From a virus: 64,000 nt of DNA. Under the pieces are notes generated by a model. It was not told the origin of the DNA. It saw only the letters and a program-made list of their open reading frames with translations, and searched no databases. The DNA lies in the IMG/VR virus record IMGVR_UViG_3300025949_000001, positions 51,996 to 115,995 of that record. One strand, written 5' to 3'. Both the position numbers and the translations under genes were made by a program. Each line of letters starts with the position of its first letter. Position 1 is the first letter of the stretch. Shown piece by piece: positions 14,760-27,366 of the stretch.

Positions 14760-15109
14760 GCGGCATCGAAACCGGCCCGAGCCCCGCCGACATCGTCAAC
14801 CGCGCCGCCGACGCGCTCGAGGCCGCAGGCAAGCCGCTGCTCGCACAAGCCGTAAGACTGCTCGCCGAACGCGCCGAGGACCTGGCCGTGGACGCCGAGC
14901 AGCTGCACGCCGCGCTCGCTGACGCGACGGAAGCAGCAGAAACCTGGGCCGCCGTCCACGCGCAGACCGAAGAGACGGCGGAAACCCGGGCCCGCATGTA
15001 CCGGCTCGCCGCAGAGGACACCGCCCACTACCGCGAGACCCTCCAGCGCATCGCCAAGGCCACGAGTCTCGAGGACGCGCGGCGGATCGCGAACGGGGCG
15101 CTGTCATGA
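14756..15109 (+). CDS. coiled-coil hypothetical protein
   Basis: ATGA coupling. Confidence 0.6.
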   Translation: MSGIETGPSPADIVNRAADALEAAGKPLLAQAVRLLAERAEDLAVDAEQLHAALADATEAAETWAAVHAQTEETAETRARMYRLAAEDTAHYRETLQRIAKATSLEDARRIANGALS

Positions 15110-15309
15110 CCAGCCACCCGATCACCGCCGCACCGACCGTCACCAGCGGCTGCTGCGTGGCCTGTCAGGCAGGCCAAACGCGTGCCGCGTGCGACACCAG
15201 CCTGCCCGTCGTGCAGCGCGCCAGCATCACCGCGATCGCCCGACGCGCCCCGAACCCCGACATCCCCGGCTACCTGGCCGAGGCGGTCCCGGCATACCCG
15301 TCCATCTAA
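15106..15309 (+). CDS. small hypothetical protein
   Basis: Coupled; CCVAC motif. Confidence 0.5.
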   Translation: MTSHPITAAPTVTSGCCVACQAGQTRAACDTSLPVVQRASITAIARRAPNPDIPGYLAEAVPAYPSI

Positions 15310-15319
15310 GGAAACGATC

Positions 15320-15562
15320 ATGACCGCGTACACCGACCGCCTCCTTGACGAGAACGACGACCTGACCCCGGACCCCGCGCTCGTGCGGCGCGTCGCAGCA
15401 CGTGTCAAGGCGCACCTCGGCCACCGCCGCACCGGCAAGGTCATGTTCGACGACATCGTGGCCGCCATCCTCGCGGACCCCCAGCTCACGGCCGAGGTCG
15501 CCCGGCTCGACGACGGCGCGCGAGAACTGCTGCTTGACGACGTCCAGACCGAGATCGGCTGA
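15320..15562 (+). CDS. hypothetical protein
   Basis: AAGGA RBS. Confidence 0.6.
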   Translation: MTAYTDRLLDENDDLTPDPALVRRVAARVKAHLGHRRTGKVMFDDIVAAILADPQLTAEVARLDDGARELLLDDVQTEIG

Positions 15563-15567
15563 GCGTG

Positions 15568-15771
15568 ATGAACCGCAGGCAAACTCGGCCGCTGTGGCGC
15601 CGCTACCTCAACAGCCTCATCGACACTCGGCGCCGCCACGCCAACTCTGCCCAGAGCGCGCACGCCGGCCCGCAGGAGTGCCTCGACGACCACCGGTCCT
15701 TGCCGCTGTGGCGCCGCGTCCTAGTCGGGCTGCTCGGCGTCCGACTCGAGCGCGAACACCGCCGGTCCTGA
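15568..15771 (+). CDS. small basic hypothetical protein
   Basis: Fills operon gap, high GC3. Confidence 0.45.
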   Translation: MNRRQTRPLWRRYLNSLIDTRRRHANSAQSAHAGPQECLDDHRSLPLWRRVLVGLLGVRLEREHRRS

Positions 15772-15816
15772 CCGTCCACCGTGGCCGACCCGAACCCGAC
15801 ACCAAAGGAGCCATCC

Positions 15817-15954
15817 ATGCCCGACCAGGAAGTCACCGTCATCACCGGCAACGGCGCCCAGACCAGCGGCCCCATGCCCCAGCGCGACGCCGAGATCGTC
15901 AAGGCACTCGCCGAGATCAGCGGCAACATCGGGAACAGCAAACCCGCCAAGTAG
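15817..15954 (+). CDS. 45-aa protein (not in ORF track)
   Basis: AAAGGAG RBS; MPDQEVTVITG...SKPAK. Confidence 0.6.
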   Translation: MPDQEVTVITGNGAQTSGPMPQRDAEIVKALAEISGNIGNSKPAK

Positions 15955-16009
15955 CCGACCAGCCAGCCGCAGGCGACCAGCCCGGACCAGCAACCCCGAA
16001 AGGAACACG

Positions 16010-16180
16010 ATGCCCCGCAACACCAGCCGCCGCACCACCACCCCGGCCGACGCCCCGAACCCCACCCCCGAGAACGACCTCTACGACGACACCGACACCG
16101 ACGAAACCCAGGCCGCCACCGCGCGCGGCGGCCGGACCGTCATCAGCGCCGCCGCCCTCTTCGGGCGCAAGACCAAGTAG
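16010..16180 (+). CDS. 56-aa protein (not in ORF track)
   Basis: GAAAGGA RBS; MPRNTSRR...LFGRKTK. Confidence 0.6.
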   Translation: MPRNTSRRTTTPADAPNPTPENDLYDDTDTDETQAATARGGRTVISAAALFGRKTK

Positions 16181-16253
16181 CCCACCAGGCGCCCGGCCGA
16201 CCACCACCGGCCGGGCCGACCATCCAACGACACCGCCGAAGGAGGCGAGACCG

Positions 16254-16544
16254 ATGCTCGCGATCACGCTCACACTGCTGGTTCTGGGCGCGCTGCTCGC
16301 CGCCTTCGGCACCGCCGGGTTCGCATTGAACTGGACGGCACCCGACCACGACAGCCTCCGGTACACCCAGGGCATCGCCAAGGCCGGGCGCCGGCTGTCC
16401 GCCGCCGGCCTGACGCTGTACGCCCTGCATTACGGCGCGAGCGGCCCGGCGCTGATTGCGCTGCTACTGGCCGCCGCGCTCGCACTCGCGACCTACCTCA
16501 CTCGAACAACGAGCACCTTATTGGCGGACGGTGGTGGCCGGTGA
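16254..16544 (+). CDS. three-TM membrane protein; target gene of the TnpB cassette (recoded C-terminus)
   Basis: AAGGAGG RBS; hydrophobic helices; last 16 codons include rare codons and parallel 17741-17791. Confidence 0.7.
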   Translation: MLAITLTLLVLGALLAAFGTAGFALNWTAPDHDSLRYTQGIAKAGRRLSAAGLTLYALHYGASGPALIALLLAAALALATYLTRTTSTLLADGGGR

Positions 16545-17791
16545 AGCAAGCAAAGAGGTTCCGGCTCTACCCGACGCCCACGCAGGAGCAGACCCTGCTC
16601 ACGCACTGCGCGCACGCCCGGTATGTGTGGAACCTGGCGATCGAGCAGCACTCCTGGTGGACGCCTCGGCGCGGACCTGCGCCGACGTTTGCGGCGCAGT
16701 GCCGCCAACTGACCGAGGCCCGCGCCGAGTTCGAATGGCTGCGCGAAGGCTCAGTAAACGTCCAGCAGCAGGCGCTGCGCGACTTCGACCAGGCTATGCG
16801 GCACTTTTTCAACCGTACCCACGGACGCCCCAGCTTCCGGAGTAAGCACCGCAACGAGGGGTTCCGCATCACCGACAGATGTGACGTGCAGAAACTCAAC
16901 AGGCGCTGGGCGCAGGTGAGGATTCCCAAGATCGGATGGGTGCGCTTCCGGCTGTCCACGGCGCTCCTGCCGGACGCGAAGTCCTACCGGGTGACCTGCC
17001 GCAACGGTCGGTGGCACGTGGCGTTCGCGGTCATTCCCGACCCGATCGAGCCGCCCGGTACCGGAGAACTGGTCGGGATCGACCGGGGCGTAACGATAAC
17101 CGCCGCACTCTCGGACGGGCGCACCTTGAACTGCCCTCAGTCGAGCGTCAAAGAACAAGCCCGCGTTCGCAAGCATCAGCGTCGCGCAGCCCGCGCGCCG
17201 AAGGGCAGCGACGAGAAGGGCGCCGAGTACGCGCAAGTCGCCAAACTGAAGGCGCGCGAGGCGGACCGGCGCAAGGACTGGGTGGAGAAGACCAGCACGG
17301 ATCTTGCGCGGCGTTTTGACCTGATCCGGTTCGAGAAGCTGAACATTCGGAACATGACCGCCTCGGCACGGGGAACCATCGAAGCGCCCGGCCGCAACGT
17401 CAGGCAGAAGTCCGGCCTGAACCGGGCGATCCTCGCCCAGGGCTGGGGGCAGCTTCGACTGCGCACCGGGCAAAAGGCGCCCGGCCGGGTTGAGGATGTC
17501 CCGGCGCCGTACACCTCGCTGCGATGCAGCGCCTGCGGGTGGATCGAGAAGGACTCGCGCAAGAGCCAAGCCGAGTTCGTCTGCGTGTCCTGCGGGTTCG
17601 CGTGCAACGCAGATGTGAATGCAGCAGTGAACGTCGCGGCGGGGCACGCCGCAGGGATGACGCCGTGCCAGCGGCCGAGCATCCGTGGACCTCGGCCCGT
17701 ACGGGCCGGAATCCTGCCTAGAGCGCAGGAGGGTGCCAACTACCTGACCGCCACCACCAACACCATCGTCCCGAGCGGAGCCACGCCGTGA
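16541..17791 (+). CDS. tnpB: TnpB RNA-guided endonuclease (IS200/IS605 type), no transposase
   Basis: KRFRLYPT..HARYVWN; RuvC D (GIDRG), E (FEKL), D (NADVNAA); CSAC/CVSC zinc finger. Confidence 0.93.
   Translation: MKQAKRFRLYPTPTQEQTLLTHCAHARYVWNLAIEQHSWWTPRRGPAPTFAAQCRQLTEARAEFEWLREGSVNVQQQALRDFDQAMRHFFNRTHGRPSFRSKHRNEGFRITDRCDVQKLNRRWAQVRIPKIGWVRFRLSTALLPDAKSYRVTCRNGRWHVAFAVIPDPIEPPGTGELVGIDRGVTITAALSDGRTLNCPQSSVKEQARVRKHQRRAARAPKGSDEKGAEYAQVAKLKAREADRRKDWVEKTSTDLARRFDLIRFEKLNIRNMTASARGTIEAPGRNVRQKSGLNRAILAQGWGQLRLRTGQKAPGRVEDVPAPYTSLRCSACGWIEKDSRKSQAEFVCVSCGFACNADVNAAVNVAAGHAAGMTPCQRPSIRGPRPVRAGILPRAQEGANYLTATTNTIVPSGATP
17640..17760 (+). ncRNA. putative TnpB omegaRNA 3' part and guide (guide from about 17741)
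   Basis: CGGCCCGTACGGGCCG hairpin, then GGAATCCTGC..GCAGGAGGGTGCCAAC resembling the IS605 right end; 5' boundary unknown. Confidence 0.6.
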
Positions 17792-18414
17792 ACCTCATCC
17801 CCAACCGCTGGCGCCGCGACCCGCGCCGGGCAGCCAAGAACATCTACTTCGCCATCGAAGAAAACCCCCGCACCGAGGCCGCCCGCGACACCCTGCGCCA
17901 CAGCAGCGACCCCGCGCAGCGCTACCACGCCCTCGACTTCCTCGCCGAGCGCGAACTGAGCCTCTACCGCACCCACGACGGCGCGTTCGGCCACCAGCCC
18001 TGGGCTGACGACATCGCCGGGGACGCCGCGACCGGTCTCGCCTACGGCGTGATGGCCCTGCGGCTGCTGCGCGCCCTCGAATGGGGCCGCACGGCCCAGC
18101 GGTCCTGGCGCTCCCACTGGCAGCCGATCGCCTGGGGCCGCGTCGACCTCACCGCTGCCGAGCAGGCGCTCGCCGACGCGTGCGGCCCGCTGCTCGACCT
18201 GCTGTCCAACGAGGACCCGACCGAGATCGCGGTGCTGTACACGCGCCTGTGGATCGCCGCCTACCCGATCATCGGCGGCCAAGCGGCCGAATGGATCGCG
18301 GTGCTCGGCAACGACTGGCAGTGCCGCGCCGCCGGGGTGCAGGACGGCCCCGACACCATCCTCACGATCCCGGACGCCCGCTACAGCCCGGACGCCACCC
18401 CCAACCCCGCATAG
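17788..18414 (+). CDS. hypothetical protein
   Basis: GTGA overlap, high GC3. Confidence 0.65.
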   Translation: MNLIPNRWRRDPRRAAKNIYFAIEENPRTEAARDTLRHSSDPAQRYHALDFLAERELSLYRTHDGAFGHQPWADDIAGDAATGLAYGVMALRLLRALEWGRTAQRSWRSHWQPIAWGRVDLTAAEQALADACGPLLDLLSNEDPTEIAVLYTRLWIAAYPIIGGQAAEWIAVLGNDWQCRAAGVQDGPDTILTIPDARYSPDATPNPA

Positions 18415-18424
18415 GAGTCCAGCC

Positions 18425-18613
18425 ATGGCCAAGCCCAAGTACGTGATCACCGCGACCGACAAGGACGGCAAGTCCCTCAGCGCCGTCGACCGCGCGCTCG
18501 GCGTCGTCGGAGGCGCCACCGTCTACAGCGACGACGACCTCGCCAAGCGCCTCGCCGACCTGCCGACCCACCCCGACGTCACCGTCACGATCCGCAACGC
18601 CAACGACTGCTGA
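18425..18613 (+). CDS. small hypothetical protein
   Basis: AGGAG RBS. Confidence 0.65.
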   Translation: MAKPKYVITATDKDGKSLSAVDRALGVVGGATVYSDDDLAKRLADLPTHPDVTVTIRNANDC

Positions 18614-18682
18614 CCCGAAGACTCCCCGCGCGCGTCCAGGCGCGGCGCGGGAAACCTGCCACCGCGCTAACGGCGGCAGAGC

Positions 18683-18729
18683 GCCCGGCCCCGAATCGTG
18701 AACCCCTCCACATCGATTCGGGGCCGGGC
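18683..18729. terminator. 16-bp perfect inverted repeat (terminator-like)
   Basis: GCCCGGCCCCGAATCG / CGATTCGGGGCCGGGC. Confidence 0.6.
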
Positions 18730-18898
18730 AACCACCACATTCAGAAACAACACCAGAAACAAACCGAACCCTGATTCACCGCCACGGAAAACGTCCGGAG
18801 AGGAGCGTACTGTGGATATCAACAATGCAGCGTCGGACCAGTGCGCTAACACCGATCCGACGCCGACTAACACGAGCCGCTATCCAGGAGCGACCAGC

Positions 18899-19828
18899 GT
18901 GCCTACGGCAGAGAATAACCGCGCGCCCAAGGGCAAGCGAACCCGCCACGACGACGCGCCCACCCCCGACGCGCCCGGCGACGTCATGGCCGTCCTACGG
19001 CACGGCGGAACCGCCGCCCTCGCCTGCGCCGCAGCCAGCTCCGCCGTCTCCCTGTACTGGCTCGCGATCCTCGTCGGCTGGCCCGCCGCCCTCGCCTGGC
19101 TGCTGCCGGCGAGCCTCGACGTGTACGCCGGCACCAGCCTCTACGTCGGGTACCGCCTACCGGTGCGCCACCCGGCCGCAAGGACTGCGCGGCGCAACGC
19201 CCGCTTCGCGCTGTCCCTCTCAGTCGCCTGCAACGCGATCTATCACGCGCTCGTCCTGTTCGGCACTGCGTGGCCGACCTGGGTCCACGACTCGCTCCTC
19301 GTCGCGGTTTCAGCGCTCCCGCCGATCGTGGTGGAACGCCTGCTGCACCTGCGTTCCAAGGTCGACACTGGAACCCCCGCAGCGGGTTTCGGGACCGTTC
19401 CAGCGCCGCGCGCTGAAATCCCGCAGCAGGTTCCACGCGAACGTCCCGCAACTGCGGCCCTCCGTCCCACTGGAACCCCCGCAGCGGTACCGCCGCCAGT
19501 TGCGCGACCCCAGGTTCCGGTTCCAGCCGCGCCGGCGGCACAGGTCCCGCAACCCGCGACCGCGGGTGTGGACGGAACCGAACTACCGGCTCTCGGGGAG
19601 CGCCGCGACCTGGTCGCCGCACAGCTGGAGACCGTGAAGGAACTCGTGCGCGAGCACGGCCCGGAGGTCACCCTCTCCACGATCATGGCGCGCACCGGGT
19701 GCAGCAAGTCCACCGCAAGCCGCCGCCGGGCCGACGCCATCGACGCGTTGAAAACCGAGGCGCGAGCGCACCGGGAGCCCGGCGCAGAACCGGCCGACGA
19801 ACCCGAACGAGACGGCGAGGTCGCCTGA
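18899..19828 (+). CDS. DUF2637 / SpdA-like membrane protein with C-terminal HTH
   Basis: LYWLA..GW..LAWLLPASLD, SVACNAIYH, VSALPP; C-terminal IMARTGCSKSTASR; precedes TraB. Confidence 0.75.
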   Translation: MPTAENNRAPKGKRTRHDDAPTPDAPGDVMAVLRHGGTAALACAAASSAVSLYWLAILVGWPAALAWLLPASLDVYAGTSLYVGYRLPVRHPAARTARRNARFALSLSVACNAIYHALVLFGTAWPTWVHDSLLVAVSALPPIVVERLLHLRSKVDTGTPAAGFGTVPAPRAEIPQQVPRERPATAALRPTGTPAAVPPPVARPQVPVPAAPAAQVPQPATAGVDGTELPALGERRDLVAAQLETVKELVREHGPEVTLSTIMARTGCSKSTASRRRADAIDALKTEARAHREPGAEPADEPERDGEVA

Positions 19829-25413: not shown

Positions 25414-25983
25414 GTGAAGCTTTCGGAGTGGGCGCGCCGCGAAGGCGTGCACTACCAGACCGCGTGGGAGTGGGCGAAGAACGGGCGCATGCCCGTGCCC
25501 GCCTACCAGACCCCGTCCGGGACATGGATGGTGCGCACCGAACCCGACGCGCCCACCGGGCGCGTCGTCGCCTACGCCCGCGTCTCCAGCGCCGACCAGA
25601 AGCCCGATCTCGAGCGCCAGGCCGGGCGCGTGGTGACGGGCGCGACCGCCCGAGGTCTCGCCGTCGCCGAAGTCGTCACCGAGATCGGTTCCGGACTGAA
25701 CGGCGAGCGCCGCAAACTGCACCGGATCCTCGCCGACCCCACCGCCGCAGTGATCGTGGTCGAGCACCGCGACCGGCTCGCGCGCTTCGGTGTCGAGCAT
25801 CTCGATGCCGCCCTGCAAGCGAACGGCCGCCGCATCGTCGTCCTCGAACACGACGAGACCAGCGACGACCTCGTACGGGACGTGGCCGAGGTACTCACCT
25901 CGATGTGCGCCCGGCTGTACGGGCGCCGCTCCGCCAGGAACCGGGCCGCGCGCGGCATCGCCGCCGCGACGGGCGAGCGCTGA
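25414..25983 (+). CDS. tnpA: IS607 serine-recombinase transposase
   Basis: MKLSEWARREGVHYQTAW HTH; YARVSS..QKPDLERQ; EHRDRLARFG; TATACT 6 nt before start. Confidence 0.95.
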   Translation: MKLSEWARREGVHYQTAWEWAKNGRMPVPAYQTPSGTWMVRTEPDAPTGRVVAYARVSSADQKPDLERQAGRVVTGATARGLAVAEVVTEIGSGLNGERRKLHRILADPTAAVIVVEHRDRLARFGVEHLDAALQANGRRIVVLEHDETSDDLVRDVAEVLTSMCARLYGRRSARNRAARGIAAATGER

Positions 25984-25986
25984 TCC

Positions 25987-27366
25987 ATGGCCGTGCAGGC
26001 CTACCGGTTCGCCCTCGACCCGACGCCGGCCCAGGCGCGCAACCTCGCGCGGCATGCCGGCGCGGCGCGGGTCGCGTTCAACTGGGGACTCTCGGCGGTC
26101 AGGGCGAACTTGTCCCAGCGTGAGGCCGAACGCTTCTACGGCATCGACGGCGACGACCTTACCCCGGCGCTTGGCTGGTCGATGTATGCGCTGCGCAAGG
26201 CCTGGAACCAAGCCAAGGGCGACATAGCTCCATGGTGGTCGGAATGCTCGAAAGAGGCGTACGCCAGCGGGCTGGAGCAACTCGCCCGCGCGTTGAAGAA
26301 CTGGTCCGACTCCAAACGCGGCAAGCGCGCCGGCCGACCGGTCGGGTTCCCGCGGTTCAAGGCGAAGCGTCGCGCTGCGCCGTCGGTGAGATTCACTACC
26401 GGGACAATCCGCGTCGAAGCCGACCGCATGCACGTGACGCTGCCGGTGCTGGGCCGGATCAAGACGCACGAGTCCACGCGCAAATTGGAGCGCAGGGTCG
26501 CGAACGGCACCGCGCGGATCCTGTCCGCGACCGTGCGCCTTGAGGCGGCCCGCTGGTTCGTCGCGTTCACCGTCGAAATCCGGCGACCCGAGAAGTCCCC
26601 GCGCCGACCGGACGCGGTAGTCGGCGTCGACCTGGGAATCAAGACGCTGGCCGTCCTGTCCGAGGGCGAGCCGGTCGGGAACTCGCGGTACTACGATGCG
26701 GCGCGCCGGAAGTTGGCCCGCACCTCGCGCACCGTTTCGCGCCGCCAAGGACCGGACCGGCGCACCGGGCAGGCCCCTTCTAGCCGGTGGGTGCGGGCGA
26801 ACGCCGCGCGCAACAGAGTCCACCGCCGGGTTGGAAACCTGCGCCGCGACGGGATCCACAAACTCACCACCGCGCTGGCCCGCGAGTACGGCACGGTCGT
26901 GGTCGAGGACCTGAACGTCGCCGGGATGGTCCGCAACCGGCGGCTCGCACGCGCGATCTCCGACGCCGGGTTCGGCGAGATTCGCCGCCAGTTGGCGTAT
27001 AAGGCGGCGTGGAACGGCGGCCGGCTCGCCGTGGCGGACCGCTGGTTTCCCAGTTCCAAGACGTGCTCGGGCTGCGGGGCAGTGAAACCCAAACTGTCCC
27101 TGGCCGAGCGCACCTACACCTGCATCGAATGCGGACTGGTCTTGGATCGGGACCTGAACGCGGCGCTCAACCTCAAGCAGTTGGTTGAGCGCACCGTCGC
27201 CGGGAGTGGCCCGGAGACGTTAAACGGACGTGGAGCCGACCGTAAGACCAGCGTGCTGGCAGGTGGCCGTGAAGCGTCTACCCCGCACCCGGCTCTCGCC
27301 GGGGTAAGACGGGGACTCTTGCCGGGCAACCGGCAAGTCCTAGGCAGGCATTCGCTGAAACTCTAG
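25987..27366 (+). CDS. tnpB: IS607 TnpB RNA-guided endonuclease
   Basis: QAYRFALDPT; GVDLG, VEDL, DRDLNAA; CSGC/CIEC. Confidence 0.95.
   Translation: MAVQAYRFALDPTPAQARNLARHAGAARVAFNWGLSAVRANLSQREAERFYGIDGDDLTPALGWSMYALRKAWNQAKGDIAPWWSECSKEAYASGLEQLARALKNWSDSKRGKRAGRPVGFPRFKAKRRAAPSVRFTTGTIRVEADRMHVTLPVLGRIKTHESTRKLERRVANGTARILSATVRLEAARWFVAFTVEIRRPEKSPRRPDAVVGVDLGIKTLAVLSEGEPVGNSRYYDAARRKLARTSRTVSRRQGPDRRTGQAPSSRWVRANAARNRVHRRVGNLRRDGIHKLTTALAREYGTVVVEDLNVAGMVRNRRLARAISDAGFGEIRRQLAYKAAWNGGRLAVADRWFPSSKTCSGCGAVKPKLSLAERTYTCIECGLVLDRDLNAALNLKQLVERTVAGSGPETLNGRGADRKTSVLAGGREASTPHPALAGVRRGLLPGNRQVLGRHSLKL

Follow-up and report, generated by a model that had tools for sequence, protein, structure and literature searches.

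A TnpB cassette inside the end of a phage membrane gene

The stretch of DNA analysed here (the window, 64,000 nucleotides) comprises bases 51996-115995 of the viral record IMGVR_UViG_3300025949_000001, which is complete at 115,995 bp and has direct terminal repeats. On its plus strand, a tnpB open reading frame (ORF) of 416 aa, including read-through (16541-17791), lies within the 3' end of a small membrane-protein gene, whose body and present tail form a 96-aa ORF (16254-16544, plus strand). This tnpB belongs to an IS605-family, tnpB-only TnpB/omegaRNA cassette (16541-17739), which is accompanied by a substitute ending for the gene it interrupts. We consider it somewhat probable, as judged from the sequence, that the cassette homes between co-infecting phages. 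A first-pass annotation of the locus had described a transposase-less TnpB resembling an RNA-guided, intronless homing endonuclease with a recoded target gene. Its observation was partly confirmed, with corrections, and its interpretation is partly supported.

The membrane gene has a native and a substitute tail

The 16 codons before the stop read YLTRTTSTLLADGGGR in the tail upstream of tnpB and YLTATTNTIVPSGATP in the tail downstream of it. The two tails match at 29 of 51 nt, and a direct comparison confirmed that 8 of the first 20 nt differ, as had been annotated. The membrane protein has 28 homologues in public data (93-125 aa, 53-76% identity), and nearly all of them end in ...ATYLT[RA]T[ST]NTI[IV]PTGATP. 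It had been predicted that homologues without tnpB would end in a YLTATTNT-like sequence; this prediction held, since their endings resemble the downstream tail and are unlike the current one. Because the homologues without tnpB end like the downstream tail, and because the site is uninterrupted in the related phage L002 described below, the downstream tail (17741-17791, plus strand) is evidently the native ending of the gene, now displaced. It includes a GGAG ribosome site (17777-17780) and a GTGA overlap with the next gene.

A position matrix was built from the 28 homologue tails and scored on all 127,900 six-frame windows of 16 aa. The downstream tail ranked first (49.7 bits, rank 1/127,900), and the whole upstream tail ranked second (8.3 bits, rank 2/127,900). 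The signal of the upstream tail came wholly from its first 8 codons, YLTRTTST (16494-16517, plus strand), which are homologous to the family tail and scored 20.9 bits when taken alone (rank 2/127,900). The last 8 codons, LLADGGGR with the following stop (16518-16544, plus strand), ranked 26,631/127,900, which is background; this half is not family-like and overlaps the tnpB start. The two tails had been presented as homologous over the same length, which is true for the first 8 upstream codons but not for the last 8. In a generic flank-duplication test, in which translated flanks were locally aligned and compared with a null distribution, the window scored 45, below the 99th percentile of the null (50.7). 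A tail of 16 codons is too short for the generic test, and the family-specific matrix was therefore used instead.

The upstream tail had also been described as rich in rare codons. Its codon usage is indeed in the lowest 2% of 16-codon windows from the window's own ORFs with high third-position GC content (GC3), and its GC3 is 0.63, whereas the right tail has 0.94 and the gene body 0.90. The rare codons TTA, TTG, GGT, and GGT gather in the family-unlike half. In the family-like half, the natural alleles L094 and L095 read TAC CTC ACC CGA ACC, compared with TAC CTC ACT CGA ACA in the window. Since CGA and CTC also occur in natural alleles, those codons alone are no proof of deliberate recoding. 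The first half of the substitute tail shares 58-75% identity with natural alleles and 67% with the displaced tail of the phage itself, and 13 of its first 14 nt equal those of L094 and L095. As the identity to natural alleles is about the same as that to its own tail, borrowing from a diverged allele and re-spelling of the phage's own tail are equally likely. The term "recoded copy" was thus an overstatement, because only one half of the substitute tail is related to the family, and that half resembles the tail of a diverged allele as much as a re-spelled copy. The sequence TTGGCGG in the second half matches the tnpB leaders of relatives, which is a weak hint only.

The empty site and the predicted guide

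An element-free allele had been expected in related phages, and one was found in L002, a syntenic phage (109.5 kb) whose blocks on both sides of the locus are 78-92% identical to the window. The membrane gene of L002 aligns as far as position 16492, at the insertion region, and resumes exactly at 17740 (94.5% over 55 nt); compared with this empty site, the window has about 1.25 kb of inserted sequence (16493-17739). The uninterrupted site reads GCGAC/CTACCTGACCGCCACCACCAAC, with the slash at the insertion point, and is identical to the window flank for 22 nt. In the window, CGAC (16489-16492, plus strand) occupies the position expected for the transposon-associated motif (TAM), 5' of the insertion point 16492/16493. 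The relatives of the locus were recovered only by alignment-based scans. When 15000-19500 was compared as DNA with the phage collection, the one match was short and fell within the TnpB gene of Saccharomonospora phage PIS 136, and neither the downstream gene nor the membrane gene recovered a relative in single-protein scans of viral contigs.

In ISDra2, the flank that follows the right end templates the guide of TnpB, which is about 16 nt long (PMC8612924). By analogy, a guide of about 16 nt was assumed for the window, and its presumed template is CTACCTGACCGCCACC (17740-17755, plus strand), directly 3' of the right end. The L002 allele, with the motif CGAC, has no mismatch to this guide. The alleles with the motif CCAC have one mismatch (L101), two (L092 and L096), three (L091 and L093) or four (L004, L094, and L095). 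The window's own working copy, with the motif CGAC, matches at 10 of 16 positions and mismatches at six (positions 7, 10-13, and 16). The motif at the insertion point is thus CCAC in eight of the nine element-free alleles examined. In 26 canonical relatives, TCAC, TCAT, CCAC or CCAT (YCAY) was present about 19-22 nt before the left-end hairpin, and same-genome copies of canonical relatives begin to align at the YCAY motif. Judged by the YCAY beside the left ends, the CCAC at the insertion point of eight of nine alleles is a plausible motif, which argues for a motif-directed junction; the perfectly matching L002 allele, however, has CGAC, which was not seen among the canonical copies.

In the probable source run, the locus is covered and no differences were seen; two other runs contain only short pieces identical to it, and none of the runs listed for the locus is an RNA run. 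None of the source-run contigs joins 16492 to 17740, as an empty site would; such contigs drop rare variants and are silent on polymorphism.

The TnpB protein, the omegaRNA, and the right end

The tnpB product contains, in the order typical of TnpB, the Pfam domains HTH_OrfB_IS605, OrfB_IS605 (RuvC), and a Cas12f1-like TNB zinc ribbon, with E-values of 1.3e-10, 5.9e-15, and 1.4e-13, all above the curated cut-offs. The D/E/D residues of RuvC lie in GIDRG, FEKLN, and NADVNAAVN, which are aligned with the motifs of solved TnpB chains, and the CxxC...CxxC of the zinc ribbon is CSACG...CVSCG. TldR-type repressors, which are nuclease-dead forms of TnpB, are recognised by the loss of the RuvC catalytic residues, whereas all three catalytic motifs are kept here. 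The closest relative of the protein is P0031 (86% identity). The N-terminus in the window is MKQAKRFR, compared with MSRFR in relatives. In P0031 (414 aa, on a 43,970-base contig), the N-terminus is likewise altered (MATARFR), and the frame continues past the right end for 14 flank codons; P0031 may be part of a similar sister cassette.

To locate the right-end boundary, about 70 relatives, drawn from actinomycete genomes and from viral contigs and including same-genome copy pairs, were compared in their 3' regions. These relatives close at ...GGAGGATGTCAA, and their sequences diverge beyond it; the window reads ...GGAGGGTGCCAA, with the last base at 17739. Given this common end, the right end of the window stops at 17739, and the flank and guide begin at 17740 (C) rather than at 17741, where the flank had been annotated to start. 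The window closes with GCCAA (17735-17739), compared with GTCAA in the family. Most target alleles read GCCAC at the matching position, so that the right end and the target-side motif differ in the last base only. Canonical elements also show a last-base difference (GTCAA against GTCAC), and the likeness in the window could be coincidence or conversion. In another element, that of L022 (4270-4325, Streptomyces sp. NWU339), the last 18 or so nt of the right end (GGAGGGGGAGGATGTCAA) occur twice in tandem with a spacing of 2-3 nt, which looks like a right-end scar or duplication.

The predicted omegaRNA scaffold and the right end span 17600-17739 on the plus strand, with an approximate 5' limit and a 3' limit at 17739. 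The last 140 nt align with those of 27 relatives (28 sequences) and form two terminal hairpins with covariation. Among the 12 predicted pairs, 8 show compensatory changes, and the window keeps both hairpins by means of changes on both strands. The guide-RNA scaffold therefore looks maintained rather than decayed. A comparison of the right-end RNA with Rfam matched no family. Folded by itself, the sequence did no better than shuffled versions (z = -1.5), and the structure became visible only in the alignment.

The conserved core of TnpB extends to about 17650. Of 71 relatives, 60 have a tnpB frame that ends 17-68 nt short of the right end (250 nt in one, L030), and in the other 11 it reads past; both the window tnpB and its closest relative, P0031, read through the right end. 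In the window, the read-through frame coincides with the frame of the displaced tail and runs to the native stop, beside the ribosome site of the native tail and the next start. The operon thus stays translationally coupled, as had been annotated: the ORF 16541-17791 continues in frame into the old tail, and its TGA overlaps the GTG at 17788. In-frame read-through would fit a preserved coupling, though the odds of it by chance are only roughly 1 in 20.

The cassette lacks the means to transpose on its own

A profile search of the complete 115,995-bp genome for a Y1 (HUH) TnpA (PF01797) gave no match, and the control genomes matched. The annotated absence of tnpA is therefore correct for this kind of transposase, but a serine recombinase of the IS607 type, which is another kind of tnpA, is encoded elsewhere in the window. 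It belongs to a separate IS607-type element at 25414-27366, in which the recombinase (Resolvase domain, 189 aa) is followed by a second TnpB (459 aa). An IS607-type recombinase acts on different ends and is unrelated in mechanism to the cassette at 16541.

The distance from the insertion point to the tnpB start is 47 nt. In relatives it is 80-260 nt, and this interval contains a hairpin that resembles the one in the right end and, in many cases, an Arc-like gene in divergent orientation. No further copy of the right-end hairpin was found in the window, and the region upstream of tnpB gave only a poor, unconvincing alignment with the left ends of relatives, in agreement with the annotation that no left-end hairpin is present. 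Both hallmarks of an autonomous IS200/IS605 element, the Y1 TnpA and the left end with a subterminal hairpin, are thus missing. With no left end and no transposase in the phage, the cassette is unable to transpose on its own. Actinomycete genomes commonly contain canonical relatives that have left ends and occur in multiple copies.

The divergent gene of relatives encodes a small ribbon-helix-helix (Arc-like) protein and was seen in L006, L007, L010, L011, L019, L023, L026, L033, and L039. It lies about 30-180 nt upstream of tnpB on the minus strand, and its start abuts the tnpB promoter region. An Arc repressor has reportedly been described for IS605 elements recently, and the divergent gene of the relatives matches it. 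The cassette of the window has no Arc-like gene.

The layout recurs in a second viral contig

A survey of phage tnpB loci for duplicated flanks had been proposed with the first-pass annotation. In 72 loci, the translated upstream region was compared with the translated flank after the right end. The top match was the viral contig L006 (IMGVR_UViG_3300035704_000009), with a score of 81, compared with a null mean of 32.5 and a null maximum of 59; a second case was thus found. At 1186-4375 of L006, the last 30 or so codons of a 545-aa gene are present twice: the gene ends in ...AMDAPQRAAMRSVILPPPGFEWTTADRLAVAAL, and the flank directly after the right end reads AMGERRPQVRATTLPPPGYSWARGDRLAVAS and then a stop. 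The family of this gene was found by a representative search, and its members end in ...QRAAVRA[ST]TLPPPGF.W..GDRL.., which indicates that both tail copies of L006 are genuine. When viral contigs were scanned for relatives of the gene, the contig of L006 itself was the only one recovered. The L006 cassette consists of the Arc-like gene, tnpB, and the omegaRNA scaffold, with no room for a left end. As counted from the two sequences, L006's own copy mismatches its guide at 6 of 16 positions.

In a quick maximum-likelihood tree, the TnpB proteins of the window and of L006 were placed on opposite sides of the deepest split, among canonical elements. Since the two are separate both in the TnpB tree and in the interrupted gene, the layout arose at least twice. 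No flank duplication was found at the TnpB loci of Saccharomonospora phage PIS 136, which carries a complete IS605 element with TnpA, or of Mycobacterium phage Crumble.

Proposed mechanism and alternative explanations

We propose that, in a cell infected jointly by the phage and a relative that has the uninterrupted allele, TnpB-omegaRNA would cut that allele beside the motif 5' of CTACCTGACC. The break would then be repaired from the cassette-bearing genome, by which the substitute tail and the cassette would be copied in (homing), or the rival genome would be lost (exclusion). The phage's own working copy would be spared because 6 of 16 guide positions mismatch, and the displaced native copy would escape because the right end replaces the TAM. 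Immunity had been ascribed to recoding, which may apply to the working copy but not to the displaced tail. We infer TnpB expression, the 3' end of the guide, compatibility with the TAM, cleavage, and repair-mediated copying. As to the origin of the cassette, we prefer an ordinary TAM-directed insertion at CCAC/CTACCT, followed by one illegitimate recombination that would have joined the end of a relative's gene (about 8 codons) to the tnpB leader and removed the left end. The altered TnpB N-terminus would fit a junction at the tnpB leader.

Homing is plausible but unproven, and a passive relic of insertion plus rescue is its serious rival. Such a relic would be an IS605-type element mobilised in trans by a host TnpA and inserted at a YCAC-like site in the gene tail; a recombination or deletion would then have lost the left end and fused a substitute ending, selected as a repair of the gene, with TnpB and the guide as leftovers. 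We regard this as unlikely, though several observations suit it or weigh against homing. The cassette was found in a single allele out of 29 known. No second genome with the right-end/flank junction was found in the viral contigs, where seven matches were all due to chance and came from unrelated phages without TnpB. The allele that matches the guide perfectly, that of L002, has CGAC, a motif seen in none of the 26 canonical relatives, and the CCAC alleles carry one to four guide mismatches. The altered right end (GCCAA for GTCAA, with TCAA changed to CCAA) could equally be decay. Of a strongly conserved tail, only half is retained in the substitute, whose second half resembles non-coding filler, so the rescue of the membrane gene may be incomplete. 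The frequency in actinomycetes of canonical relatives with left ends and many copies also suits a relic. However, the nuclease motifs are intact, and the changes in the omegaRNA hairpins are compensatory rather than disruptive. Moreover, the layout is present twice, in separate TnpB lineages and separate genes, and an accident that leaves an intact nuclease is not expected to recur.

The cassette might instead be a competition weapon, with TnpB-omegaRNA destroying co-infecting relatives that have the uninterrupted allele and the cassette not being copied. This explanation draws on the same anatomy as homing, and such nucleases can kill competitors when the flanks are too diverged for conversion (review PMC13565253). 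The flanks of L002 are only 78-92% identical to those of the window, and its downstream gene is unrelated. Nevertheless, a weapon would leave the substitute tail beside the cassette in two phages unexplained, unless the tail were a mere repair of insertion damage, and we consider this explanation improbable. It is very improbable that the 51 nt before tnpB are a decayed left end after TCAC (TACC-TCAC/TCG...) and that YLTRTTST is fortuitous: the left tail has TCAC and then TCG, like Streptomyces left ends, shares CTCACTCG with L014 and contains the TTGGCGG match near the start codon, but its first 8 codons are second only to the true tail on the family matrix, its first 14 nt all but equal natural alleles, its full alignment to the left ends of relatives is poor, the flank that follows the right end begins 9 nt earlier than an insertion behind TCAC would require, and the decayed left end, which rests on two short matches, was set aside.

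Homing with a substitute gene ending thus being our preferred explanation, we suggest more tentatively, and with somewhat less than even confidence, that phages hold a recurrent class of RNA-guided "home-and-rescue" drives. These drives would have no TnpA and no left end, would be inserted near the 3' end of a useful gene, would carry a guide-resistant substitute end and use the displaced end as the guide template, and would cut and convert alleles of related co-infecting phages; they would have arisen independently in the window and in L006.

Genomic setting of the locus

The neighbourhood of the TnpB locus consists of small genes of unknown function, genes for helix-turn-helix proteins, and an FtsK/SpoIIIE-like gene. 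The 96-aa membrane ORF carries three hydrophobic stretches, and its comparison with Pfam and PHROG matched no family. Its TGA stop overlaps the GTG start of tnpB (GTGA at 16541-16544). The downstream gene (17788-18414, plus strand) encodes a 208-aa protein of unknown function, and its GTG start overlaps the native stop, which is also the TGA of tnpB. The relatives L091 and L093 have an identical start context for the next gene after their tails. The gene at 17788-18414 is unrelated to its counterpart in L002 (4291-4851), and homology returns beyond that gene, which places a mosaic boundary exactly at the GTGA overlap.

A 17-nt inverted repeat (16197-16213 and 16525-16541, complementary at 15 of 17 positions) brackets the membrane gene, with one arm in a hairpin that precedes the gene and the other formed by the GGT-GGT-GGC portion of the substitute tail. 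This repeat may be due to chance, as similar pairs are common in the GC-rich region. Short contigs identical to 16699-16930, 17179-17422, and 17958-18102 were found in drinking-water and soil metagenomes from other studies. These identical pieces in two other metagenomes mean that the same or a very close phage is not confined to the rhizosphere sample of origin.

Comparison with known systems

TnpB, from which Cas12 is descended, is known to guard its own transposon against loss. If the homing proposed here is true, RNA-guided nucleases have evolved the lifestyle of freestanding homing endonucleases, with a built-in rescue of the interrupted gene. There would also be a simple, sequence-only rule for finding natural triplets of guide, target, and TAM, in which the displaced gene end is the target, and a new driver of mosaicism at phage gene boundaries.

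The cassette shares with the ISDra2-type, tnpB-only (IS1341-type) elements of the IS200/IS605 group the protein family, the domain order, and the RuvC and zinc-ribbon motifs (PMC8612924). In these elements, likewise, the scaffold overlaps the 3' end of the gene, the right end closes with ...CAA, the flank serves as the guide template, and the right end stands in for the TAM and so protects the self copy (PMC8612924). In contrast to them, the window has no left end and no TnpA in the genome, its ORF reads through the right end, and it has a substitute gene ending. The presumed TAM at the perfectly matching site also differs from that of the family, being CGAC and not YCAY.

TnpB-driven spread without TnpA has been shown for plasmids (PMC11870625), and spread between phages by homing ("transposon non-restorative homing") was put forward as possible in a review (PMC13565253). 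The proposed logic is the same as in the window, since the guide is a record of where the element was inserted, copies without the element are cut, and those that bear it gain (PMC11870625; PMC13565253). However, those cases concern complete insertion sequences in chromosomes or plasmids, and the interrupted gene is not compensated. In the window, phage would act against phage, and the element carries a spare gene end.

The arrangement of the gene ends resembles that of the mORFs of fungal mitochondria, which are LAGLIDADG or GIY-YIG genes near the 3' end of atp6, atp9, cox2, and nad3 (PMC3630166; Allomyces atp6). An mORF brings an inserted C-terminal and leaves the native C*-terminal behind, and the inserted copy is diverged from the native one (PMC3630166). 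The same three parts are present in the window, namely an in-phase substitute C-terminal, a nuclease gene, and a displaced native C-terminal (PMC3630166), with the qualification that only the first 8 of 16 substitute codons are homologous. The mORF nuclease is a protein-only homing endonuclease, whereas that of the window is an RNA-guided TnpB. Furthermore, the displaced tail has no role in mORFs, whereas in the window it is the predicted guide template.

The free-standing homing endonucleases of T-even phages (SegF, SegB, and Mob; intronless homing) cleave the allele of a rival phage and co-convert flanking markers. The setting of co-infecting related phages is the same as that proposed here. 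The T-even enzymes discriminate between alleles by protein contacts and sit between genes, whereas the TnpB of the window lies inside a gene and would use guide mismatches and the TAM. Synthetic cleave-and-rescue drives share the design of homing plus rescue. In our literature searches, we found no description of an RNA-guided version of the spare-C-terminus layout. What appears to be new is the RNA-guided combination of two known parts, a TnpB that would home and a spare C-terminus like that of the mitochondrial mORFs.

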